DNA of 40,308 nt from a virus (lineage: Duplodnaviria > Heunggongvirae > Uroviricota > Caudoviricetes). Location of the stretch: IMG/VR virus record IMGVR_UViG_2778261673_000007; one strand, given 5' to 3'. Within the stretch, counting starts at the first letter, position 1. Every line of letters starts with the position of its first letter. Below the pieces are notes generated by a model, which was given only the letters and a program-made list of their open reading frames with translations, searched no databases and was not told the origin of the DNA. This document shows, piece by piece, positions 3,526 to 31,433 of the stretch. The position numbers were made by a program, and so were the translations under genes.

Positions 3526-4350
3526 TCAGGCGGTGAAAGTACCAATAAAGGTTTCTACTTTGCTGTCTTTGAATTTCTCAACAAGCAGATCGCGAAATTC
3601 GTTAGCCATTTCTTCCTGCACCGCCTCCAGCTGAATAATGCGCAGAACAAGTACAGGACGATCGCCAGTGATAATGCTGAGGCGTAATTTAAAAGAACGT
3701 TCTTTCAGACCTTCAAACGGAACGCATTTAAATTCAAATGCCACTGGCATAATGTCTTTGGTCTTCGCTTCGACAGACTCCATCAGGGAGCGTTTGCCGC
3801 TGAAGTCATTGTCTTCAAAATCAGCAGTCTGGTTCGCTTCAATTGTGATTTTACGGATCGCCGCAGCCGCTTTGGTTGCCTGAATGGCGTCACCATTAGC
3901 ATCAAAGCCCACAAGGTTGTCGGCCCAGTCTTCAATCCATTCTGCCAGTGATTTCTGGGAGTTACGCTCGCCGTGAACAGACAACAGAGCAGAGAACGGT
4001 GCTGTCTTTTTCAGTTTGAGAGTGGCGGTGTTATCTGCGTGGCCTGGTTCATCAATAGTACCCAGGTTAAGCACACTGACGGCACGCATATTATCAGCAT
4101 CGATAAAGCAGCGGGTGCCTTCATCTGCAAGATCTTTAGAATAACGGGTAAAGTCATCAATGCTGGCAGTGGAAAGCGCACCACGGAAACGGAAGCGATT
4201 TAAATTAAATTTTTCCAGGTCATGAATGCGGAAATTCTCAGGCAATGCCACAGCATCGGCACCAATCTTACTGATAATTTCATTAACACCCTGAGCAGAA
4301 ATAAGGGCATGGATTTGATTAATTGCGGTTGCGTCTAAGTTCTGAGACAT
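3526..4350 (-). CDS. YfdQ-like DUF2303-family phage protein (274 aa)
   Basis: 274-aa ORF with GAGGA RBS; sequence and length recalled as matching the YfdQ family of the E. coli CPS-53 prophage early region; adjacent to the HD hydrolase as yfdQ-yfdR are. Confidence 0.6.
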
Positions 4351-4415
4351 AATAAGTCCTCACTATATAAAGATATTCAGTGATGAGATAAATAATCAGT
4401 TAATTAAAAACGATA

Positions 4416-4778
4416 TTAACGACCTGCTGCGCGGAGTTTTCCGTCAGGTTCACCGGCAAGAGTCAGTAACTGTCCCTGGTCTTCCTGCAGAATAGTCAGG
4501 CGACCACCGCGATTGACATACATCGGCGTTTCGGTGGTGTCTTCTTCGGAAATTTTCCCGCGGTTAGTCGGGCGAACATATGAGAGTTTGTGTTTGATTT
4601 TCACTCGGTTCTCATCAAACGGTTCGATTTCCAGGTTGAGTGAGACCTTACCTTTGGTTTTCGTGTTCATCACACCGGAAGCGACTTCACTGAGAACTGC
4701 GCCGATTTTGGTTTCAAATACGCCGCCGTCCAGCTCCCCGATAAATGCCTGCACATCAGTACTGCGTTCGCTAGCCAT
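4416..4778 (-). CDS. Hypothetical early-left-operon protein (about 121 aa; start at internal ATG with GGAG RBS)
   Basis: The ORF-track version (4416-5096) extends into GC-rich, non-protein-like sequence; a GGAG-ATG pair at 4776-4778 gives a compact protein with normal composition. Confidence 0.5.
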   Translation of the reverse strand: MASERSTDVQAFIGELDGGVFETKIGAVLSEVASGVMNTKTKGKVSLNLEIEPFDENRVKIKHKLSYVRPTNRGKISEEDTTETPMYVNRGGRLTILQEDQGQLLTLAGEPDGKLRAAGR

Positions 4779-4826
4779 TTTGCTGCTCCTCATCATATCG
4801 ACCCTGCAAGGCCGATTAGTTTCTCC

Positions 4827-4915
4827 ACAAAACAGAGAAGAACACCTGCGGTGGCAGCCGCCCGGATGGATTGGGTTATGAGCCCGTCGTCCGGTGATGC
4901 TCTTCTCTGTTTTGT
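4827..4915. repeat. 15-bp perfect inverted repeat (ACAAAACAGAGAAGA / TCTTCTCTGTTTTGT) enclosing a 59-nt GC-rich loop
   Basis: Arms at 4827-4841 and 4901-4915 read directly from the sequence; lies in a 470-bp stretch with no credible ORF. Confidence 0.45.
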
Positions 4916-5182
4916 AAAAAGGACGGTACCAGCCGGAAGCAAGGGTACAAACTGGTACCGCCAGGACTACACACAGCATAAAGTTGTGGTGCCGGGTGCC
5001 TCCCGGTGCCTGGCGAAGGTTGCACACCAGGCGGGTGGGTATCCACAGAAGGTCGACTGTCAGCCTCAACCTTAACCCGCGTGCGCTGAGCCGCATTCAC
5101 CACAACGCTAAGGATTCTCTCTGGTTGAAAATACTTAGCTGTTATGTGCCTGCTTTTAGCCACATCAGGCGAGGTGGACCTA

Positions 5183-5231
5183 GTTATTCCCCAACAACAA
5201 GGATTCGGTTAATCTGGTTATCCCCAACAAC
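5183..5231. promoter_or_regulatory. Two direct repeats GTTAT(T/C)CCCCAACAAC 34 bp apart, immediately upstream of the 5247 gene
   Basis: Copies at 5183-5198 and 5217-5231; positioned within about 50 bp of the start codon at 5247; candidate operator or UTR element. Confidence 0.35.
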
Positions 5232-5246
5232 GCAAAAGGAAAAGAA

Positions 5247-5681
5247 ATGTCCGGTAATATCTATACGCTGTACAAATCCCACTGTGAAAATGTTGGAAAG
5301 TATCGGGGCATTGAAATCAGTGGGGTAGTGCCATCAGTCGAAATAAGCAAAGTTGAATCAAGGGCAACATTACTTACTCTTTTGGACCTTGTCTTACATG
5401 AGCACCGGAAGAAATTCGGCACTCCCTATAATCAGTTGAATGGGAAAAAGGCTCTGGTTCACCTTATTCTGATGAAGCATCACTGGATGCCAAAACAGAT
5501 TAATGAGATGAAATTTGATGAACTTCTTCTTTCAATTCAGGATGAACTCACACTTGATAAAATAAGCGTAACCGCCCAGAAATTTTTAGATTATCGAGAC
5601 TGGAGATCACAAATTCATCACTTTGATGATTTTGACGAAAATGAATGGGATCCTAATTTGTCTGCACAATATCTAAAGTAA
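5247..5681 (+). CDS. Hypothetical 144-aa protein, oriented against the leftward early operon (possible lysogeny-expressed moron)
   Basis: ATG ORF with AAAGGAAAAG upstream; AT-rich; convergent with and overlapping the minus-strand small gene at 5653-5681; no family recognised. Confidence 0.5.
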   Translation: MSGNIYTLYKSHCENVGKYRGIEISGVVPSVEISKVESRATLLTLLDLVLHEHRKKFGTPYNQLNGKKALVHLILMKHHWMPKQINEMKFDELLLSIQDELTLDKISVTAQKFLDYRDWRSQIHHFDDFDENEWDPNLSAQYLK

Positions 5682-5859
5682 CATCCTGTGATAAAACCGT
5701 GATTTCCTGATCCAGTTTTTTTAAGGAGTCTATTGTTTCCTGTCGATAAGACAGCACTTCACGAAGCTGGTTTATAGCTGCCAGCTTCTTTGTCATCCAC
5801 TCATAAATTTCCTCATCTGTGTAGCCAGGCGCGACGATTTTGGGTTCTGTTTTGTGCAT
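5653..5859 (-). CDS. Hypothetical small protein (about 68 aa) at the head of the leftward operon
   Basis: Internal ATG (MHKTEPK) preceded by AGGAGATGTGAA; lies just downstream of the putative OL/pL region. Confidence 0.4.
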   Translation of the reverse strand: MHKTEPKIVAPGYTDEEIYEWMTKKLAAINQLREVLSYRQETIDSLKKLDQEITVLSQDVTLDIVQTN

Positions 5860-5918
5860 TTCACATCTCCTCAAGTTATCAGTTACTTGTTGATGGGGAC
5901 CAGATTGTTAAAGAGCTA

Positions 5919-5941
5919 AGCGTCCTGTAGGGCGCTTTTTT
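5919..5941 (+). terminator. Putative rho-independent terminator (short bulged GC stem followed by TTTTTT)
   Basis: AGCG(t)CC ... GGCGCT followed by a T6 run on the plus strand; would terminate transcripts of the 5247 gene. Confidence 0.35.
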
Positions 5942-6020: not shown

Positions 6021-6047
6021 GGGTACATTATGTATCTCAAAGGTACA
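6021..6047. promoter_or_regulatory. Putative OL operator half-sites (GGTACA motifs) left of the repressor gene
   Basis: GGTACATTATGTATC and AGGTACATTG share the GTACA half-site with the palindromes found between the repressor and cro genes. Confidence 0.35.
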
Positions 6048-6093
6048 TTGTCAAGTATAAAAAAACCTGCCGAAGCAGGTTCATAAACATTGA

Positions 6094-6768
6094 TTAGGCT
6101 TTGATTTTGTATCTTCTTGGTTTTCCTGAGAAAATCACTGTACCAATTATAGAGCAATTACCGTTGATCTTAATGTAAGGCTCAGGCCAGTTTGGGTTTA
6201 ACGCTTTGAGATAACGCTGTGTCCCATCTTCTATCAACCTTTTGAAGGTGGTTTCACCTGTATCGTGCATCAATGCAATAACGTCGTCACCGTGGCAGGC
6301 AGGTACTTCAGGATCGACAAAAATCATGTCTCCCGGGCGGTACTCATCAATCATTGAATCACCTATCACCCGCAAGATATAAGTCATTTCCCCACAGGGT
6401 ACAGGGCAGGGATACGTTTCTGCTGTGCTCAAATCAACCTCAGAATATCCAACTTCTTTCCATGCTCCGGCCTGTACCCATGATATGACAGGGACTAATG
6501 TGATTTGTTTATTAGTGATTGAAACATCAGGTTTTTTTGTGATGTTCGTTGTCTGGTGTTCTTGATCGAGCCATCCGACAGGCAGGTCGAAACATTTTTC
6601 GATGTGTCGTGCCATGCTGTCACCGATATTTTTAGTAGCACCATCTCCCATAAACCTGCTGGTCTGGGTTGGCTCGCGATCAATCATAGTGGCAAAGGAA
6701 GAATTCCCGCCAACACCATCTCTCAGTTTTCTGGCGTTAGACCGCCGGATGTCATGGATTGTTTTCAT
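6094..6768 (-). CDS. cohE: CI-like prophage repressor: N-terminal HTH, C-terminal S24 LexA-type self-cleaving peptidase domain
   Basis: 224 aa; C-terminal region contains the GDSM serine motif and a downstream Lys (TFKRL) typical of S24 peptidases; divergent from a Cro-like gene across an operator-rich intergenic region; size matches the e14 repressor. Confidence 0.8.
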   Translation of the reverse strand: MKTIHDIRRSNARKLRDGVGGNSSFATMIDREPTQTSRFMGDGATKNIGDSMARHIEKCFDLPVGWLDQEHQTTNITKKPDVSITNKQITLVPVISWVQAGAWKEVGYSEVDLSTAETYPCPVPCGEMTYILRVIGDSMIDEYRPGDMIFVDPEVPACHGDDVIALMHDTGETTFKRLIEDGTQRYLKALNPNWPEPYIKINGNCSIIGTVIFSGKPRRYKIKA

Positions 6769-6783
6769 AACGAAATTAAAACC

Positions 6784-6853
6784 CTTGTACCGCTAAGGTA
6801 CAAGTATCTTGAAGGTTCATTTCAATCATGTAATATGTACACCGGAGGTACAT
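6784..6853. promoter_or_regulatory. OR/pR region: palindromic operators CTTGTACC-N5-GGTACAAG and ATGTAC-N7-GTACAT with a TTGAAG-16-TAATAT promoter reading into cro
   Basis: Palindromes read directly (6784-6804 and 6835-6853); -35 TTGAAG at 6809-6814 and -10 TAATAT at 6831-6836; the second operator overlaps the -10. Confidence 0.5.
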
Positions 6854-6858
6854 ATTGT

Positions 6859-7059
6859 ATGAAAGCGTATTGGGACTCTTTAACCAAAGAACAGCAGGGC
6901 GAGTTGGCCGGAAAAGTTGGCTCAACACCTGGCTACTTACGGCTGGTTTTCAATGGCTATAAAAAAGCCAGTTTTGTGCTGGCTAAAAAACTTGAGCAAT
7001 GCACGTCAGGTGCAATTACGAAATCTGACTTAAGACCGGATATCTATCCGAAAGATTAG
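6859..7059 (+). CDS. croE: Cro-like small HTH regulator (66 aa)
   Basis: ATG at 6859 preceded by GGAGG; divergent from the repressor; small helix-turn-helix-like protein. Confidence 0.65.
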   Translation: MKAYWDSLTKEQQGELAGKVGSTPGYLRLVFNGYKKASFVLAKKLEQCTSGAITKSDLRPDIYPKD

Positions 7060-23602: not shown

Positions 23603-24159
23603 AACTGACGCCTGTTATTGCTGCGCTGCGTGCCCGCTGCCCGTATTTTGAAAACCGGGTGGCAGGCGCGGCACAGTTCAAAAATCTGCCGGAGGTCGGA
23701 AAGCTGAGACTCCCGGCGGCGTATGTGGTACCGGGGGATGATTCTCCGGGAGAAAACAAAAGCCAGACCGACTACTGGCAGGAGCTGAAAGAGGGCTTCT
23801 CCGTGGTTGTCATACTGAGTAACGGGCGTGATGAGCGCGGTCAGTTTGCTTCGTATGATGTGGTGGACGATGTCCGGCAGATGCTCTTTAAGGCTCTGCT
23901 GGGCTGGAACCCGGAAGCGTGCGGTAACCCGATTACCTATGACGGCGGCACGCTGCTGGATCTGAATCGTCATGAGCTGATTTATCAGTTCGATTTTTCG
24001 GTCATCAGCGAGCTGACCGAAGACGATACCCGCCAGCAGGATGACCTGAACAGTCTGGATGAACTGCGAACGCTGGCGATTGATGTTGATTATCTCGATC
24101 CCGGTAACGGGCCTGACGGCGATATCGAACATCACACCGAAATACCCCTTCCTTCCTGA
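23599..24159 (+). CDS. Tail completion / terminator-like protein
   Basis: Position immediately upstream of the sheath gene cluster. Confidence 0.45.
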   Translation: MKLTPVIAALRARCPYFENRVAGAAQFKNLPEVGKLRLPAAYVVPGDDSPGENKSQTDYWQELKEGFSVVVILSNGRDERGQFASYDVVDDVRQMLFKALLGWNPEACGNPITYDGGTLLDLNRHELIYQFDFSVISELTEDDTRQQDDLNSLDELRTLAIDVDYLDPGNGPDGDIEHHTEIPLPS

Positions 24160-24167
24160 GGATCATC

Positions 24168-24338
24168 ATGTTTGTGAAACCTGTTAAAGGGCGGTCAGTG
24201 CCTGACCCTGCCCGCGGCGACCTTTTGCCCGCCGAAGGGCGAAATGTTGATGAGAACAACTACTGGCTGCGCCGTGAAGCAGCGGGTGATATCCGGCGCG
24301 TGAATAAAAAGGTGAACACCGATGACGATAAGCTTTAA
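24168..24338 (+). CDS. Small ORF (56 aa) upstream of and overlapping the sheath gene; not in the ORF track
   Basis: GAGGA 6 nt before ATG at 24168; ends TAA 24336-24338. Confidence 0.3.
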   Translation: MFVKPVKGRSVPDPARGDLLPAEGRNVDENNYWLRREAAGDIRRVNKKVNTDDDKL

Positions 24339-25818
24339 CACCATTCCGTCGAATACGCTGGTTCCGCTGTTTTATGCGGAAATGGATAACCAGGCTGCGA
24401 ATACTGCACAGGACAGCGGAGCATCGCTGCTGATTGGTCATGCCAATAACGGTGCAGAGATTGTTGCCAACAGTCTGGTGCTGATGCCGTCGGCAGACTA
24501 TGCACGCCAGATTTGTGGTGCGGGAAGTCAGCTGGCGCGTATGGTCGAGGCTTATCGCCAGACCGACCCGTTTGGTGAGCTGTATGTGATTGCCGTTCCG
24601 GAAGCCACAGGCGCGGCGGCAACGGTTACGCTGACGGTGACCGGGGAAGCAACCGAAAGCGGCACGGTGAATGTCTATGTGGGACGTACCCGCGTGCAGG
24701 CTCCGGTGACCAACGGCGATAACGTCACGACGATTGCCAGCAGTATCCAGGATGCCATCAATGCCGTTCCGACTCTGCCGTTTACAGCTTCATCTTCGGC
24801 TGGCGTGGTCACACTGACCGCGCGTCATAAGGGGCTTTGCGGGAATGAAATTCCTGTCAGCCTCAATTACTACGGCTTCGGTGGGGGCGAAGTGCTGCCA
24901 GCGGGCGTACAGATTGCCGTGGCGACGGGGACCGTCGGAACGGGCGCTCCGGTTCTCACCGGCGCGGTGGCTGCAATGGCGGATGAGCCGTTTGATTATA
25001 TCGGTCTGCCGTTCAACGACACGGCCTCCGTTAACACGCTGGTGACCGAGATGAACGATACCAGCGGTCGCTGGAGCTATGCGCGTCAGCTGTATGGTCA
25101 TGTGTATACGGCAAAGACCGGCACACTGTCAGAACTGGTGAACGCAGGTGACCAGTTTAACCAGCAGCACATCACCCTGGCGGGGTACGAAAAAGAGACC
25201 CAGACGCCTGCCGACGAGCTGGCGGCAAGCCGTACCGCCCGCGCAGCGGTGTTTATCCGCAACGATCCGGCACGTCCCACGCAGACCGGTGAGCTGGTGG
25301 GTATGCTGCCTGCGCCGAAGGGGAAACGGTTCACGATGACCGAGCAGCAGACCCTGCTGTCTCATGGCGTGGCAACGGCGTATGTCGAAAGCGGGGTGCT
25401 GCGCATTCAGCGTGATGTCACCACGTACAGGAAAAATTCTTACGGGGTTGCGGATAACAGCTACCTCGACAGCGAGACGCTGCATACCAGTGCGTATGTA
25501 CTGCGCAAACTGAAATCCGTCATTACCAGTAAGTACGGGCGTCACAAGCTTGCCAGCGACGGTACCCGCTTTGGTCCCGGTCAGGCGATTGTCACCCCGG
25601 CGGTAATCAAAGGGGAACTGCTGGCAACCTACCGTCAGCTTGAGCGTGCGGGGATCGTGGAAAACTACGAACTGTTTAAGCAGTACCTGGTTGTGGAGCG
25701 TGATGCCAGCGATCCGAACCGCCTGAACACGCTGTTCCCGCCTGACTATGTTAACCAGTTGCGTGTTTTTGCCGTGGTTAACCAGTTCCGTCTTCAGTAT
25801 TCAGAGGAGTCTGCATAA
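24322..25818 (+). CDS. Contractile tail sheath protein (Mu L-like)
   Basis: 498 aa, followed directly by a 118-aa tube gene, chaperone with frameshift and tape measure: canonical myovirus order. Confidence 0.8.
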   Translation: MTISFNTIPSNTLVPLFYAEMDNQAANTAQDSGASLLIGHANNGAEIVANSLVLMPSADYARQICGAGSQLARMVEAYRQTDPFGELYVIAVPEATGAAATVTLTVTGEATESGTVNVYVGRTRVQAPVTNGDNVTTIASSIQDAINAVPTLPFTASSSAGVVTLTARHKGLCGNEIPVSLNYYGFGGGEVLPAGVQIAVATGTVGTGAPVLTGAVAAMADEPFDYIGLPFNDTASVNTLVTEMNDTSGRWSYARQLYGHVYTAKTGTLSELVNAGDQFNQQHITLAGYEKETQTPADELAASRTARAAVFIRNDPARPTQTGELVGMLPAPKGKRFTMTEQQTLLSHGVATAYVESGVLRIQRDVTTYRKNSYGVADNSYLDSETLHTSAYVLRKLKSVITSKYGRHKLASDGTRFGPGQAIVTPAVIKGELLATYRQLERAGIVENYELFKQYLVVERDASDPNRLNTLFPPDYVNQLRVFAVVNQFRLQYSEESA

Positions 25819-26174
25819 TGGCCCGTATCGGGGGAACCTGTTATTTCAAAATTGACGGTCAGCAGCTATCGCTGACCGGCGGCATTGAGGTGCCCATGAA
25901 CAGGACGGTCAATGATGACATCATCGGCCTGGACGGTTCAGTGGACCGCAAGGAAACTCACCGTGCGCCTTATGTCAAAGGGACATTCAAGGTGCCGAAG
26001 AATTTTCCGGTGAGTAAAATCACCTCGTCTGATGAGATGACCATCACTGCCGAGCTGGCGAACGGTCAGGTCTATGTATTGTCGTCCGCCTGGCTGCACG
26101 GAGAAGCGAACCATAATGCCGAAGAAGGCACGGTTGATCTTGAGTTCCACGGTGAAGAAGGGGATTACCAGTAA
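25818..26174 (+). CDS. Tail tube protein
   Basis: 118 aa immediately after sheath. Confidence 0.7.
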   Translation: MARIGGTCYFKIDGQQLSLTGGIEVPMNRTVNDDIIGLDGSVDRKETHRAPYVKGTFKVPKNFPVSKITSSDEMTITAELANGQVYVLSSAWLHGEANHNAEEGTVDLEFHGEEGDYQ

Positions 26175-26443
26175 TGAAAGAGCTTGAGTTAAAGAAACCG
26201 ATTATCGCTCATGGTGAGACACTCTCCGTACTGGAGTTTGATGAACCCACCGGGAAGGATGTCCGCGAGCTGGGGTATCCCTACCAGATGAATCAGGATG
26301 AGTCCGTCAGACTTCTGGCGCATGTGGTGTCGAAATACATTGTGCGGCTGGCGAAAGTGCCGCAAAGCTCTGTCGACCAGATGTCTCCGGCAGACCTGAA
26401 TGCAGCGGCGTGGCTTGTGGCTGGTTTTTTCCTCCAGGCCTGA
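26174..26443 (+). CDS. Tail assembly chaperone (upstream frame)
   Basis: Position between tube and tape measure; ends just after a TTTTTTC slippery site. Confidence 0.6.
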   Translation: MKELELKKPIIAHGETLSVLEFDEPTGKDVRELGYPYQMNQDESVRLLAHVVSKYIVRLAKVPQSSVDQMSPADLNAAAWLVAGFFLQA

Positions 26444-26592
26444 CGGCTGAATACCTCACTGATCGCTTCTTTGACTGCGCCAGCTACTGGCGCATTAATC
26501 CCTTCGAATTGCTGAATATGCCGATCAGTGAAATTCCCTTGCTGGTCAGTCAGGCAAACAGGATAGAGCAGGAGAAACGCACACATGGCTGA
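26425..26592 (+). CDS. Tail assembly chaperone -1 frameshift extension (slippery site T TTT TTC at 26425-26431)
   Basis: The -1 frame downstream of the heptamer encodes protein-like sequence (EYLTDRFFDCASYWRINPFELLNMPISEIPLLVSQANRIEQEK) running to the tape-measure start. Confidence 0.5.
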   Translation, partial: FFPPGLTAEYLTDRFFDCASYWRINPFELLNMPISEIPLLVSQANRIEQEKRTHG

Positions 26593-28420
26593 ATTTGAGC
26601 TTAAGGCGTTGATCACCGGTGTCGACAGGCTTTCTCCCGCGCTGTCGAAAATGCAAAAGAAAATCCGGGGATTTAAACGCCAGGCGGAAGAAGCGTCACA
26701 GGGTGGGCTGGCGCTTGGTGGCGGACTGGCAGCGGGTCTGACGCTTTCCCTGAAATCTTATGCCGATCAGGAAAACGCCGCCACCGGGCTGAAAGTCGCC
26801 ATGATGGATGCGAACGGCGAGGTTGGAAAGAGCTTTCAGGACATCAATAAACTGGCTATTGGACTGGGTAACCAGCTACCCGGTACAACGGCTGATTTCC
26901 AGAACATGATGCAGATGCTGGTGCGTCAGGGGATTCCGGCAGAAAACATTCTGGGTGGTGTGGGTAAAGCGACAGCTTATCTTGCGGTACAACTGAAAAA
27001 AACACCGGAAGCGGCTGCTGAGTTTGCTGCAAAGATGCAGGATGCTACCGGAACGGCGTCAGAAGACATGATGGGGCTGTTCGACACTATCCAGAAGGCG
27101 TTTTATCTGGGCGTTGACGATACCAACATGTTGTCCTTCTTCACTAAAACCAGTTCTGTTCTGAAGATGGTGAACAAGGACGGTCTTCAGGCTGCACAGA
27201 GCCTTGCCCCCATCAGCGTCATGATGGATCAGATGGGGATGAACGGGGAGTCGGCAGGTAATGCACTGCGAAAAGTTATCCAGTCCGGATTAAGCGTTAA
27301 GAAAATCAGGGACGTCAATAAAGTCATGGCCCGCCAGAAACTCGGGGTACAGCTCGATTTTACTGACGGCAAAGGAAGTTTTGGCGGTCTTGATAACATG
27401 TTCAGGCAACTGGCAAAGCTGCGAAAACTGACCGACGTTAAGCGAACAGGTGTACTTAAGGCAATATTTGGTGATGATGCCGAAACCCTTCAGGTGGTCA
27501 ATGCACTAATCGATAAAGGAAAGGATGGCTACGATCAGATCCAGCAGAAGATGAATAAACAGGCCAGCCTGAATAAACGTGTTCAGGCCCAGCTTGGTAC
27601 GCTGTCCAACCTGTGGGAGGCAATGACGGGGACCGCAACTAACGGCCTTGCGGCTATTGGCGGCGCATTTTCTGGTGACGCCAAAAATATCACGCAATGG
27701 CTGGGGGTGTTAGGGGAAAAATTCACGAAGTTTGCGGATGAAAATCCCCGGGTTATTCGCGGCGTCGTCGGGCTTGCTGCCGGTCTTGCGATTCTGAAAC
27801 TGGGATTGATGGGCGTTGGCGGTGCCATCAGTATTGTCAGCAGGATCATGTCGATGACGCCGATTGGAATGATTGCGACGGCGATAGCCCTGGCTGCGGG
27901 ATTAATTATCACTAACTGGGATGTTGTCGGACCTTATTTCAAGAAGCTCTGGGAAACCATTGGTCCTTATTTTGAGGCTGGCTGGGAACTTCTGAAGAAG
28001 GTTTTTGCCTGGTCGCCGCTGGGGATGGTAATCAATAACTGGGGACCGGTTGTTAAGTGGTTTCAGGATATGTGGGACAAGCTGAAGCCAATTATTGAGT
28101 GGTTTACCGACAGTTCCGGTGACACGGTCGATGCCATTAACTCTGCGCAGTGGGGCGCTGGTGCTTATGATGCTTATGGGACGGGAATACCGGCACGGGG
28201 ATACACACCTTATCAGGCGGTAGATCCGGCTCAGTCAAACAACGCCTCCGATGCCACAGGCCCGAATCCCTTCATGATTAACAAAGCTTCTGCGCCAAAA
28301 GTTGCTGGTGAGATCAAGGTCTCTTTTGTGAATTCGCCTCCGGGTATGCGGGTTATGGAAACGCGATCCAGCGGTTTTGATGTCAGCCATGATGTTGGCT
28401 ATACGCGCTTTGGCAGGTAA
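26585..28420 (+). CDS. Tail tape measure protein
   Basis: 611 aa, Ala/Gly-rich with predicted helical and TM-like segments; canonical position. Confidence 0.8.
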   Translation: MAEFELKALITGVDRLSPALSKMQKKIRGFKRQAEEASQGGLALGGGLAAGLTLSLKSYADQENAATGLKVAMMDANGEVGKSFQDINKLAIGLGNQLPGTTADFQNMMQMLVRQGIPAENILGGVGKATAYLAVQLKKTPEAAAEFAAKMQDATGTASEDMMGLFDTIQKAFYLGVDDTNMLSFFTKTSSVLKMVNKDGLQAAQSLAPISVMMDQMGMNGESAGNALRKVIQSGLSVKKIRDVNKVMARQKLGVQLDFTDGKGSFGGLDNMFRQLAKLRKLTDVKRTGVLKAIFGDDAETLQVVNALIDKGKDGYDQIQQKMNKQASLNKRVQAQLGTLSNLWEAMTGTATNGLAAIGGAFSGDAKNITQWLGVLGEKFTKFADENPRVIRGVVGLAAGLAILKLGLMGVGGAISIVSRIMSMTPIGMIATAIALAAGLIITNWDVVGPYFKKLWETIGPYFEAGWELLKKVFAWSPLGMVINNWGPVVKWFQDMWDKLKPIIEWFTDSSGDTVDAINSAQWGAGAYDAYGTGIPARGYTPYQAVDPAQSNNASDATGPNPFMINKASAPKVAGEIKVSFVNSPPGMRVMETRSSGFDVSHDVGYTRFGR

Positions 28421-28480
28421 TGAAAAATTAATCTGTTAATGAGTCCCACTCCGGTGGGATTTTTTATGTACGGAGTTTAT

Positions 28481-29809
28481 ATGACGTGGAAAGACAGACT
28501 TCAGGACGCGTCATTTCGCGGTGTGCCGTTTAAGGTTGAAGAAGAAAGTGCGGGAACCGGTCGTCGTGTGGAAACGCACGAATACCCGAACCGCGACAAA
28601 CCCTATACCGAAGACCTGGGGAAAATCACTTTCCGCCCGTCCATCACAGCTTATGTGGTGGGAGATGACTGCTTTGACCAGCGCGATCGCCTGATTGACG
28701 CGCTGAATAAACCCGGTCCCGGCACGCTTGTCCATCCGACTTACGGTGAGCTGAAAGTCTGTGTTGACGGGGAAGTTCGGGTCAGCACATCGAAGAGTGA
28801 AGGGCGTATTGTCCGCTTTGACCTGAAGTTTGTCGAAGCGGGAGAACTCTCTTACCCCACTTCAGGTGCGGCGACGGCGCAGACGCTGATGTCATCCTGT
28901 TCTGCACTGGATGACTGCATCAGTGACAGCTTCAGTGGTTTCAGTATCGATGGCGTGGCAGATTTTGTGCAGAACGACGTCGTCGGTAATGCCAGCACAA
29001 TGCTTGGGTATGTTTCTGATGCGATGAAAGTGGTGGATTCTGCCGTATCGGATGCCGCCAGGCTGTTGCAGGGGGATATCTCGGTACTTCTGCCGCCGCC
29101 ATCGTCAGGCAAAAATTTCGTTGAGCAGGTGCAGAAAATGTGGCGTACCGGGAAACGCCTTTATGGTAACGCCAGCGACCTGGTCACCATGATCAAAACG
29201 CTTTCCGGTGTCAGCCTCGGCAGCGATCTGCAACCGCGCGGCGTCTGGAAAACGGACAGTAAAACCACCGCCACGGCGACGCAGCAGCGTAACGTGGTTG
29301 CCAGCACCCTTCGTACGACCGCAATCAGCGAAGCGGCGTATGCCGTCACACGATTGCCTGCGCCCACAACTTCCGCGGTGATGCAGAATGCCACAGTGGG
29401 GCCGTCAACAACACCCGCGCAGAGCACCGGCTGGCCTTTTGTCACGCATCCGGCACTGAACAATGCACCGGCGGTGAAAAACACGGTTGACCTGCCAACG
29501 TGGGAAGAACTGACCGACATTCGCGACACACTGAATACGGCAATTGATAAGGAGTTGTCCCGTACAACCAGTGATGCGCTGTTTCTGGCGCTGCGCCGGG
29601 TGAAAGCAGATCTGAATGCGGATATCAACACGCGCATTGAACAGTCTGCACGGATCATTCAGCGCACGCCGGATGAGGTTTTACCCGCGCTGGTGCTGGC
29701 GGCGACCTGGTTTGATAACGCGGCGCGTGACGCGGACATTATCCGGCGTAATGCCATTACGCATCCCGGCTTTGTGCCGGTGATCCCTCTGAAGGTGCCA
29801 GTGCAATGA
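28481..29809 (+). CDS. Mu N-like DNA circularisation / tail hub protein
   Basis: Start at ATG 28481 after GGAG; position after tape measure in a Mu-like tail module. Confidence 0.5.
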   Translation: MTWKDRLQDASFRGVPFKVEEESAGTGRRVETHEYPNRDKPYTEDLGKITFRPSITAYVVGDDCFDQRDRLIDALNKPGPGTLVHPTYGELKVCVDGEVRVSTSKSEGRIVRFDLKFVEAGELSYPTSGAATAQTLMSSCSALDDCISDSFSGFSIDGVADFVQNDVVGNASTMLGYVSDAMKVVDSAVSDAARLLQGDISVLLPPPSSGKNFVEQVQKMWRTGKRLYGNASDLVTMIKTLSGVSLGSDLQPRGVWKTDSKTTATATQQRNVVASTLRTTAISEAAYAVTRLPAPTTSAVMQNATVGPSTTPAQSTGWPFVTHPALNNAPAVKNTVDLPTWEELTDIRDTLNTAIDKELSRTTSDALFLALRRVKADLNADINTRIEQSARIIQRTPDEVLPALVLAATWFDNAARDADIIRRNAITHPGFVPVIPLKVPVQ

Positions 29810-30885
29810 ACGACAATGTCACGCTACGGGTAAATGGCCGGGAGTGGAATGGCTGGACATCGGTGCGCATCGGTGCCGGTATTGAACGGCTGGCGCGGGA
29901 TTTCAGTGTGGAGATCACTCGCCAGTGGCCGGGAGATGAGGGTATCACCACGCTTCAGCCGCGCATTAAAAACGGTTCAAAAGTGGAAGTGCTGATTGGT
30001 GATGAGCTGGTGATCACCGGCTGGGTGGAGGCGACTCCCGTTCGTTACGATGCCCGTTCGGTCAGCACCGGTATTGCCGGACGTAGTCTGACGGCTGACC
30101 TGATTGACTGTGCAGCCGAACCGACACAGTTTAACGGACGCTCGCTGGTGCAGATTGCGCAGGCGCTTGCTGCGCCTTTCGGCATTGAGGTGGTGAACAG
30201 CGGTGCGCCGTCGGGTGTTATTCCTGATGTTCAGCCTGATCACGGTGAAACGGTGATTGAGGTAATCAACAAAATACTCGGTCAGCAGCAGGCGCTGGCT
30301 TACGACGACCCGCACGGCAGGCTGGTGATTGGCGGTATTGGCTCAACGCGGGCACATACCGCGCTGGTACTTGGGGAAAACATCCTTTCCTGTGATACGG
30401 AGAAGAGTATCCGGGAGCGGTTTTCTGTTTACCAGGTGGCGGGGCAGCGTGCCGGAAACGACGATGATTTCGGTGAGGCCACCACCACCGCGCTGCGGGC
30501 CCGCACAGAGGACGCATTTATTGCCCGTTACCGTCCGATGTATATCAGGCAGACAGGGCAGGCCACGGGGGCAGGTTGTATTGCGCGTGCTGACTTTGAA
30601 GCCCGACAACGGGCGGCGCGGACGGATGAAACCACCTATGTGGTGCAGGGCTGGCGACAGGGTAACGGTACGCTGTGGCAGCCCAACCAGCGGGTGATTG
30701 TCTTCGATCCGGTCTGTGGTTTCGACAATACCGAACTGCTTGTCTCGGAAGTCACGTTTACTCAGGACCAGAACGGCACCCTGACGGAAATCCGTGTCGG
30801 CCCACCTGATGCTTATCTGCCTGAACCCGAAGCCCCCGGCGCGCGGAAAAAGAAAAAAGCCAGAGTACAGGAGGACCCGTTCTGA
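29806..30885 (+). CDS. Mu P-like tail protein
   Basis: Gene order and size in Mu-like baseplate cluster. Confidence 0.55.
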   Translation: MNDNVTLRVNGREWNGWTSVRIGAGIERLARDFSVEITRQWPGDEGITTLQPRIKNGSKVEVLIGDELVITGWVEATPVRYDARSVSTGIAGRSLTADLIDCAAEPTQFNGRSLVQIAQALAAPFGIEVVNSGAPSGVIPDVQPDHGETVIEVINKILGQQQALAYDDPHGRLVIGGIGSTRAHTALVLGENILSCDTEKSIRERFSVYQVAGQRAGNDDDFGEATTTALRARTEDAFIARYRPMYIRQTGQATGAGCIARADFEARQRAARTDETTYVVQGWRQGNGTLWQPNQRVIVFDPVCGFDNTELLVSEVTFTQDQNGTLTEIRVGPPDAYLPEPEAPGARKKKKARVQEDPF

Positions 30886-31433
30886 TGAGGACGATTGAAG
30901 CCATGCAGCGACAACTTCTCGGCCTGATTGGGCGGGCAGTGGTGAAAAGCATCAGTGCCGCCACGAAATGTCAGACCGTGGATGTGTCCCTGATTGCCGG
31001 TGAACCCAAAGCCGGGGTTGAACATCTTGAACCCTACGGTTTTACCGCAAGGGCAAACAGCGGTGCGGAAGCGGTGGTGTTGTTTCCGGATGGCGACCGT
31101 TCTCATGCGGTGGTTGTTACGGTGTCGGACCGGCGCTACCGCCTGAAAGGGCTGCAGACGGGTGAGGTGGCGGTCTATGACGATCAGGGGCAGTCCGTGA
31201 CGCTGACCCGGGAGGGGATCGTGGTGGACGGTGCAGGTAAAACGATCACGTTTCGCAATTCACCTAAAGCACGTTTTGAAATGGACCTAGAAGTGACAGG
31301 ACAGGTGAAAGACCTGTGCGACTCCAGCGGCACCACCATGTCAGCGATGCGGCTTGCCTATAACGGGCATCGTCACAGAGAGAACGGTCAGGGCAGTAAC
31401 ACCGACAAACCTGATAAAGCGATGGAGGCATGA
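30885..31433 (+). CDS. Baseplate assembly protein V-like (spike)
   Basis: 182 aa with gpV-like N-terminal OB-fold region pattern; position. Confidence 0.6.
   Translation: MRTIEAMQRQLLGLIGRAVVKSISAATKCQTVDVSLIAGEPKAGVEHLEPYGFTARANSGAEAVVLFPDGDRSHAVVVTVSDRRYRLKGLQTGEVAVYDDQGQSVTLTREGIVVDGAGKTITFRNSPKARFEMDLEVTGQVKDLCDSSGTTMSAMRLAYNGHRHRENGQGSNTDKPDKAMEA

Follow-up and report, generated by a model that had tools for sequence, protein, structure and literature searches.

The window analysed here is a stretch of 40,308 nucleotides (nt) from a virus of Caudoviricetes (IMG/VR record IMGVR_UViG_2778261673_000007), and its region 4779-5246 is the subject of this report. Over a 601-nt query the window was about 99% identical to Shigella phage SfIV, and phage SfV was close too. 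An earlier note, made from the letters of the sequence, had described the region as a GC-rich stretch between genes with no credible open reading frame (ORF) and had proposed a candidate structured RNA in the early-left operon. The base composition agreed with this description, as the guanine-plus-cytosine (GC) fraction is 0.55-0.575 over 4700-5199 versus 0.36-0.49 in the genes on either side. It is established that the region holds a conserved pseudoknotted RNA on the minus strand, with homology to the Rfam family STnc100 (RF02076), its own terminator and a conserved position in the early-left operon. The RNA is a new, unannotated member or a divergent subtype of this known and poorly understood family. 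Its main parts are as follows.

4914-5136, minus strand: STnc100-like RNA of about 220 nt, composed of 5' leader, pseudoknotted core, linker and terminator (match to RF02076; fold z = -4.8)
4983-5106, minus strand: conserved core of about 124 nt with covarying helices (86.7 bits with the covariance model R1 described below, the window being in its seed)
4916-4962, minus strand: intrinsic-terminator-like hairpin with a stem of 11-13 base pairs (bp) followed by C and UUUUU (aligns to the terminator of the Rfam model; fold z = -3.3)

The whole window was scanned with Rfam at gathering thresholds and no family was reached. A permissive cmscan of 4300-5700 gave one clear match, STnc100, at 4914-5136 on the minus strand (43.1 bits against a gathering score of 47, E 1.2e-7), which spans model positions 1-206 and includes the terminator. 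As the score falls under the gathering score, no annotation pipeline calls the RNA. Weak matches to snoR72, ftsZ-DE, DicF and DUF805b (E > 1) were dismissed as chance. Folding against shuffled controls gave z = -4.8 for the minus strand and z = -1.5 for the plus strand, and G.U pairs are frequent in the fold, for example 55 A-U and 55 G-U at one pair of helix H3 in an alignment of 149 copies. On the basis of the G.U pairs and the difference in z-score, the minus strand is the RNA strand. The conserved 22-mer had no match in 100 shuffles. Thus the structured RNA proposed in the earlier note was confirmed by Rfam homology and a covarying fold, and it was identified by the covariance-model search and comparative folding which that note had suggested.

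Sub-threshold STnc100 matches were likewise present in SfIV, ST64B, Cronobacter phage phiES15, P1, RCS47 and SJ46. Canonical STnc100 copies were also aligned directly, from 933W (75 nt downstream of stx2B, a position reported in PMC12370729), phage Evi and a Klebsiella phage, and the blocks common to these and the window are GGUGAAU ... CACCGGGAGGCACCCGGCACC. With R1 the canonical 933W copy scored 87.1 bits, close to the 86.7 bits of the window, both sequences being in the seed. Outside the seed, the ST64B copy scored 83.9 bits and the copy in the e14 prophage 69.9 bits. R1 found a single RNA copy in the window and none downstream of pR.

To obtain a broad set of relatives, one genome per bacterial species was scanned with the two conserved blocks. 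The scan gave 120 loci across Enterobacterales, including Kosakonia, Pantoea, Erwinia, Rahnella, Klebsiella, Citrobacter and other genera, and 138 distinct cores, 88-135 nt long, were extracted from these loci. Since GGUGAAU and the P6 hairpin were fixed in the search pattern, the apparent invariance of these two elements is partly imposed. From 72 diverse cores aligned by MAFFT without structural information, RNAalifold recovered five nested helices, in which 92.6% of the cells are paired, compared with 80% after column shuffling and about 40% when the partners were slid by 1-3 columns. Changes on both sides were observed at 16 of the 27 pairs. The core of the window is arranged as follows, all on the minus strand.

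5098-5106 with 4983-4991: helix P1
5095-5097: AAU
5079-5094: helix H1
5076-5078 with 5033-5035: helix P3
5036-5067: variable hairpins
5027-5032 with 5008-5013: helix H3
5007: single A
4992-5006: P6 hairpin, CCGGG-AGGCA-CCCGG
5016-5073: pseudoknot, in which AAGGUU at 5068-5073 pairs with AACCUU at 5016-5021 in the H3 loop

The covariance model R1 was built from the 72-core alignment, with the window sequence in the seed, and it finds 149 copies in the fetched loci. In the resulting alignment, which is fitted to R1 and thus biased towards the structure, 94.1% of the cells pair and compensatory change occurs at 22 of the 27 pairs. Among the 38 copies found by the model only, the inner part of P1 covaries (GCUAUG/CAUAGC and CGGAACG/CGUUCCG, for example), and P6 does so occasionally (as in CCGUG/CACGG). 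Helix H1 reads GCGGC-UCAGC-GC-A-CGC in the window and CCCCC-UNNGC-GG-N-GGG in canonical copies, which amounts to three double swaps, and P3 is GGG/CCC in the window against GCG/CGC in canonical copies. These differences in H1 and P3 account for the low Rfam score of the window RNA. Copies with a six-nucleotide 5' arm of H1 drop the bulge, as in CCUUUC-UAAGC-GAAAGG, and this supports the bulged register of H1. The nucleotides AAU, UNNGC and AGGCA are invariant in the junctions and loops of the core, and P6 is joined to the 3' strand of P1 without any nucleotide between them.

The pseudoknot was present in nearly every copy, where 5-9 nt after P3 are complementary to the H3 loop, with more than a dozen sequence solutions. 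The pairs include AAGGUU/AACCUU in the window, CUGGUG/UACCAG in 933W, UGGUUAU/AUAACCA in P1, and elsewhere UUUGAUC/GAUCAAA, GGCAAA/UUUGCC and GAAUCCGGA/UUCGGGUUU. Since the register of the loop differs between sequences in both alignments, a permutation test was used instead of a column-wise count of covariation. Over the 72 copies, the duplex formed with the own H3 loop had a mean of -9.47 kcal/mol, compared with -6.12 +/- 0.28 kcal/mol when the loops were permuted; none of 20000 permutations was as strong as the observed set (z = -12). The consensus line of the Rfam family contains neither P3 nor the pseudoknot.

The sequence or a close relative was found in 2772 of 5426 complete Escherichia coli genomes, where annotated copies are called hypothetical protein, or YmfH in K-12. 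Lambdoid phages, P1-like phages and about 120 prophage loci carry relatives. Of the eight window-type genome loci that were scored, only one attains the Rfam threshold, whereas canonical copies score 49-208 bits. The family shows three genomic forms, namely free-standing genes composed of promoter, core and terminator, leaders embedded in operons, and head-to-tail arrays. Canonical copies are located in the interval from Q to the lysis genes. A sigma-70 promoter with a -10 element ending 8 nt before GGUGAAU was detected for about 20 of 135 distinct copies, all of them canonical, so that their transcript would begin at P1. About half of the copies are followed by a strong intrinsic terminator 17-50 nt after the core. 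In other copies a ribosome-binding site, a tRNA gene or a further unit comes directly after it. At several loci the units are positioned 9-40 nt from phage tRNA genes. In Pantoea prophages, 5-6 diverged units arranged head to tail separate a candidate Q-like gene from holin/lysozyme genes, these gene identities having been assigned by eye and not by a domain search. The arrays were observed at L073 (4132-5932), L064 (6395-7839), L069 (2059-3606), L044 (944-1994) and L035 (3110-4491), which represent Pantoea prophages and a Pantoea megaplasmid; some units have no spacer, and in L073 the array fills the gap between the Q-like gene and the holin/lysozyme genes.

The ban operon of P1-like phages contains a window-type RNA, which lies upstream of tciA at a distance of about 30 nt. 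The copy of P1 itself (L002 2497-2630, corresponding to about 70,073-70,206 of AF234172, between upl and tciA) scores 90.5 bits with R1 and is unannotated in a record of 535 features. A predicted 9-bp hairpin in P1 would sequester the ribosome-binding site of tciA and overlaps the 3' strand of the P1 helix (z = -1.9 against shuffles). A riboswitch-like exchange between this strand and the terminator or ribosome-binding site was considered and rejected, as the hairpin is only marginally better than shuffled sequences and, by eye, nothing comparable was present in two other leader-type copies. A metabolite switch was rejected because the downstream genes are too diverse. Some other copies showed features of their own. 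The canonical copy downstream of stx2B in 933W (L010 3001-3260) is immediately adjacent to the anti-sRNA AsxR (88 bits), which is encoded on the other strand. The copy of the E. coli ECO_1_S prophage (L008 3040-3184) has retained its 5' leader, P1 stem and terminator, and its core interior is replaced by unrelated sequence (28 bits with R1); it is either a decayed or a remodelled unit. About 2.5 kb away from its copy of the RNA, ST64B has a C4 antisense RNA (79.7 bits) with isrK (64.3 bits) next to it (L005 409-597).

The neighbouring features of the window were positioned as follows.

6027-6054, minus strand: candidate early-left promoter pL, TTGACA-16-CATAAT (11 of 12 positions of the promoter consensus)
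5247-5681, plus strand: gene of 144 amino acids with no Pfam match, opposing early-left transcription
5183-5231, no strand assigned: two direct repeats, GTTAT(T)CCCCAACAAC, 34 nt apart
4827-4915, minus strand: long hairpin of 89 nt, reported in the earlier note as an inverted repeat, which follows the terminator and precedes the ribosome-binding site of the yfdP-like gene
4416-4778, minus strand: yfdP-like gene of 120 amino acids, the first protein gene after the RNA

The gene content agreed with the early-left position proposed earlier. The cI gene at 6094-6768 on the minus strand carries a Peptidase_S24 domain, and a CP76-type cII-like gene lies to its right. The candidate pL is situated just beyond a terminator-like hairpin after cI. 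Motifs of the form GGTACA..TGTA(C/T)C, which are likely CI operators, were found at 6021-6055, over this promoter, and at 6784-6860, between cI and cro. The promoter at 6054-6027 was taken as pL because of its consensus match together with the recurrence of these motifs between cI and cro. Leftward from pL follow an ORF of 73 amino acids, the convergent 144-amino-acid gene, the direct repeats, the RNA with its terminator, the long hairpin, and then yfdP-, yfdQ- (DUF2303) and yfdR-like (HD-domain) genes. The same arrangement, with the RNA a few hundred bases downstream of a cI-type repressor and co-oriented with it, was observed in SfIV, SfV, e14, ST64B, phiES15 and ECO_1_S, and in about nine window-type loci of Buttiauxella, Pantoea, Lelliottia and Klebsiella. 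A promoter scan and a positional scan, the latter of which does detect the promoters of canonical copies, revealed no own promoter upstream of the window RNA or in window-type copies. The 144-amino-acid gene looks like an inserted moron. Downstream of it, terminator-like hairpins were observed on the plus strand at 5763-5788 and 5918-5937, and SfV and e14 have different opposite-strand genes at this place.

The terminator hairpin is kept in e14, ECO_1_S and locus L015, while ST64B and phiES15 have another hairpin with a U-tract instead. The long hairpin is separate from the RNA and lies downstream of its terminator. The perfect 15-bp inverted repeat described in the earlier note was recovered exactly, as part of arms of 25 nt (4827-4851 and 4891-4915) which are 84% complementary; with G.U pairs the hairpin has 20 contiguous pairs and a structured top (free energy -45.5 kcal/mol). 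No U-tract follows it on either strand. It precedes different genes in different phages, a yfdP-like gene in the window and ST64B, xisE in e14 and rdgC in ECO_1_S. Together with the terminator it is also found in Stx2c phages and mEp460 with differing upstream sequence, and the ST64B copy shows one compensatory change from G-C to A-U. By analogy with the N-leader and sib sites of phage lambda, the long hairpin may be an RNase III site or a 5' stabiliser of the downstream mRNA. The two direct repeats upstream of the gene at 5247 were also found as described, GTTATTCCCCAACAAC at 5183-5198 and GTTATCCCCAACAAC at 5217-5231, differing by a one-base indel. They are not conserved with the RNA and lie between the homology break points 5177 (SfV) and 5231 (PhiR29_1); each folds as a small GGGG-loop hairpin on the minus strand only. 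The features picked out in the earlier note are thus real, but both are accessory, and the main element, the pseudoknotted RNA at 4983-5106 on the minus strand between them, had been missed.

The RefSeq and GenBank annotations place ORFs across the region, as hypothetical proteins or as ymfH in K-12, and this favours a coding reading in which the region encodes YmfH of e14, an N-terminal extension of SfIVp34, or SfIVp35. The sequence data speak against it. Pfam gave no match for the ORFs across the region, including those of 226, 95 and 114 amino acids. No frame is consistently open among 21 window-type homologues, whose cores are 108-124 nt long and differ by lengths that are not multiples of three. 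The e14 copy is 94% identical to the window, and the loss of 1 nt from its P6 hairpin puts ymfH into another frame relative to the window. The substitutions in the region are compensatory for the RNA helices. The 226-amino-acid ORF (4416-5096) spuriously lengthens the downstream yfdP-like gene across the RNA in the upstream direction. The true start of this gene is an ATG with GAGGAG ahead of it at 4786-4791, and the annotators of SfV (orf32) and ST64B (sb37) likewise place the start after the RNA. On the basis of the Pfam results, the frame openness and the ymfH frameshift, the coding reading was rejected and is regarded as very unlikely, in line with the lack of a credible ORF noted earlier. 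In the annotations themselves, ymfH (L004 4048-4359, E. coli K-12 e14 prophage) overlaps the RNA core, the terminator and the long hairpin. In SfIV (L001 5717-6629), the coding sequence given for SfIVp34 runs upstream across the RNA, and SfIVp35 has been placed over it on the opposite strand; the two seem to be artefacts of annotation.

The position downstream of pL would also fit a nutL site for an N-type antiterminator, which the earlier note had suggested, and the P6 hairpin with its stem of 5 bp and loop of 5 nt matches a boxB hairpin in size. On the surface, the long inverted repeat is similar to the a1/a2 repeats of a retron msr/msd RNA, a possibility for which the earlier note had proposed a check. 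Neither idea agreed with the results. No evidence of the N protein family was obtained among the ORFs between pL and the RNA, and the first ORF after pL (73 amino acids) has no Pfam match and, by eye, no arginine-rich motif; no pair of boxA and boxB was found; and P6 belongs to a larger fold which is also used outside pL operons, in late operons and in the ban operon of P1. For the retron, no family match was obtained, and the neighbours of the region, the yfdP-like and the 144-amino-acid gene, have no reverse transcriptase domain. A nut site or a retron RNA is the least probable of the explanations, with hardly any weight left to it.

More weight was given to a cis-acting antiterminator of the put type, an RNA which modifies RNA polymerase and allows early-left read-through in a phage without N. 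In SfV-, e14- and ST64B-type prophages the RNA is among the first conserved elements of the pL operon, ahead of the terminators, these prophages have no annotated or detected N gene, and HK022 provides a precedent for antitermination by RNA alone at this position (PMC9378689). However, R1 and Rfam find nothing in HK022 24000-31000, the segment expected to hold putL and putR, and the window has one copy and no second one after pR. Free-standing units of promoter, core and terminator, or arrays, account for many family members, canonical copies accumulate as terminated RNAs in lysogens (PMC5331693), and these are located downstream of Q, where the polymerase is already modified. A put-like role is therefore considered improbable.

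The favoured explanation, held with somewhat better than even confidence, is that the region represents a minus-strand STnc100/PasD RNA of about 220 nt which is released from the early-left transcript and acts in trans. It draws on the behaviour of the family and on the local anatomy. Eleven STnc100 copies of E. coli EDL933 are transcribed, one of them confirmed by Northern blot (PMC5331693). PasD1 and PasD2 of enteropathogenic E. coli (EPEC) are Hfq-dependent small RNAs seen by RIL-seq (a method that ligates and sequences interacting RNAs; PMC8550237), and Zhu, Shabalina and Storz concluded that PasD and STnc100 have a common ancestor (bioRxiv 10.64898/2026.05.13.724894). In the proposed sequence of events, inactivation of the S24-type repressor by CI cleavage would let pL (about 6027-6054) fire leftward. 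Transcription would cross the RNA, and a part of it would stop at the RNA terminator to give a stable structured RNA, the 5' end of which would be formed by processing. Polymerases that read through would continue into yfdPQR and on to xis/int, and the terminator may therefore also act as an attenuator. The long hairpin would likely serve the downstream mRNA as an RNase III site or 5' stabiliser. The released RNA would act in trans, most likely as an Hfq-associated regulator like PasD and STnc100.

Several observations weigh against this explanation. The Rfam score is under the curated threshold. The convergent 144-amino-acid gene sits between pL and the RNA and SfV annotates a putative terminator just upstream of the RNA, so read-through from pL is an assumption. 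The loop of the terminator is 19 nt long, and its U-tract has just five residues. In K-12, the promoter region of ymfH-xisE-intE is nearly silent (PMC12132413). The dense pseudoknotted core with its invariant loops is atypical for a base-pairing Hfq-dependent small RNA, about half of the family has no terminator, and some members are arranged in head-to-tail arrays. Taken together, these observations suggest that the core may have another role, such as protein binding or decoy.

In its wider form, this alternative holds that the core, placed by temperate phages of Enterobacterales in the leaders of early-left and late operons, works by its shape. It might bind a protein or serve as a decoy, be a processing module resembling a tRNA, act in anti-defence, or even be a ribozyme, and the STnc100-type core would then represent a distinct class of pseudoknotted, array-forming phage RNA and not a base-pairing small RNA. 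The five-helix junction with its pseudoknot and the invariant AAU, UNNGC and AGGCA favour it, and so does the contact of P6 with the 3' strand of P1, which recalls the stacking of a T-arm on an acceptor stem; the P6 loop, however, has 5 nt and is not a 7-nt T-loop. The Pantoea arrays and the units close to phage tRNA genes are in keeping with it as well, but no Rfam similarity to a tRNA, ribozyme or riboswitch was obtained. ARAGORN finds no tRNA gene at the site or elsewhere in the window, and no match to the Rfam tRNA clan appeared even at E <= 10. In a published screen, overexpression of K-12 ymfH, the e14 copy of the RNA, triggered the retron-Sen2 toxin (bioRxiv 10.1101/2020.06.22.160242). 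This could be an RNA effect; the result was, however, credited to a protein and never dissected. The Hfq-dependent PasD relatives with their RIL-seq targets also stand against action by shape. Such a role, and with it the distinct class, is a minority possibility, judged unlikely though clearly less so than a put-like antiterminator. If true, the K-12 gene ymfH would be such an RNA and the triggering of retron-Sen2 an RNA effect.

The structural framework obtained here allows the role of these abundant prophage RNAs to be tested, and as e14 ymfH is the same RNA, this can be done in K-12. The analysis indicates that annotations as hypothetical protein or YmfH in many E. coli genomes represent an RNA gene lying just under the Rfam threshold. 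To the consensus line of Rfam it adds the short helix P3, the covarying pseudoknot and the bulge-compensated H1.

Among known systems, the N-leader and sib hairpins are RNase III hairpins of phage lambda. Like these, the long hairpin at 4827-4915 would be a long, near-perfect duplex in the pL transcript beside a gene start, of a length which suits RNase III, while it has no sequence relationship to them. The RNA family resembles phage tRNA arrays in its head-to-tail arrangement, in its position beside tRNAs and in late-operon leaders, and in the junction of P6 and P1, which is similar to a T-arm on an acceptor stem. In contrast to a tRNA, the core has five helices and a pseudoknot, with no CCA and no anticodon arm. 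The putL and putR sites of HK022 resemble the window RNA in being structured RNAs that follow an early promoter in a lambdoid phage which lacks a functional N antiterminator. They are about 70 nt long, with two stems, and form a left and right pair (PMC9378689), whereas the window RNA is a single copy for which no sequence or structure match to them was found.

The closest system is STnc100 itself, a prophage small RNA of Enterobacteriaceae. The window RNA has in common with it the conserved blocks, the helices P1, H1, H3 and P6, the predicted 3' terminator and a co-oriented location in phages and prophages of Enterobacterales. It differs in its score, which is under the gathering threshold (43.1 vs 47 bits), in its location, as window-type copies are found in the early-left operon or the P1 ban operon and canonical ones between Q and the lysis genes, and in its expression signals, since window-type copies have no detected promoter of their own while about 20 canonical copies possess a sigma-70 promoter. 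PasD1 and PasD2 of EPEC E2348/69 are reported as structural homologues of STnc100 (bioRxiv 10.64898/2026.05.13.724894), a likeness which rests on the statement of those authors. The Hfq-dependent stability and RIL-seq partners of these two RNAs are the only functional data for the family (PMC8550237). The PasD genes are situated near Q and LpxR in late regions, while the window RNA is placed in the early-left operon.

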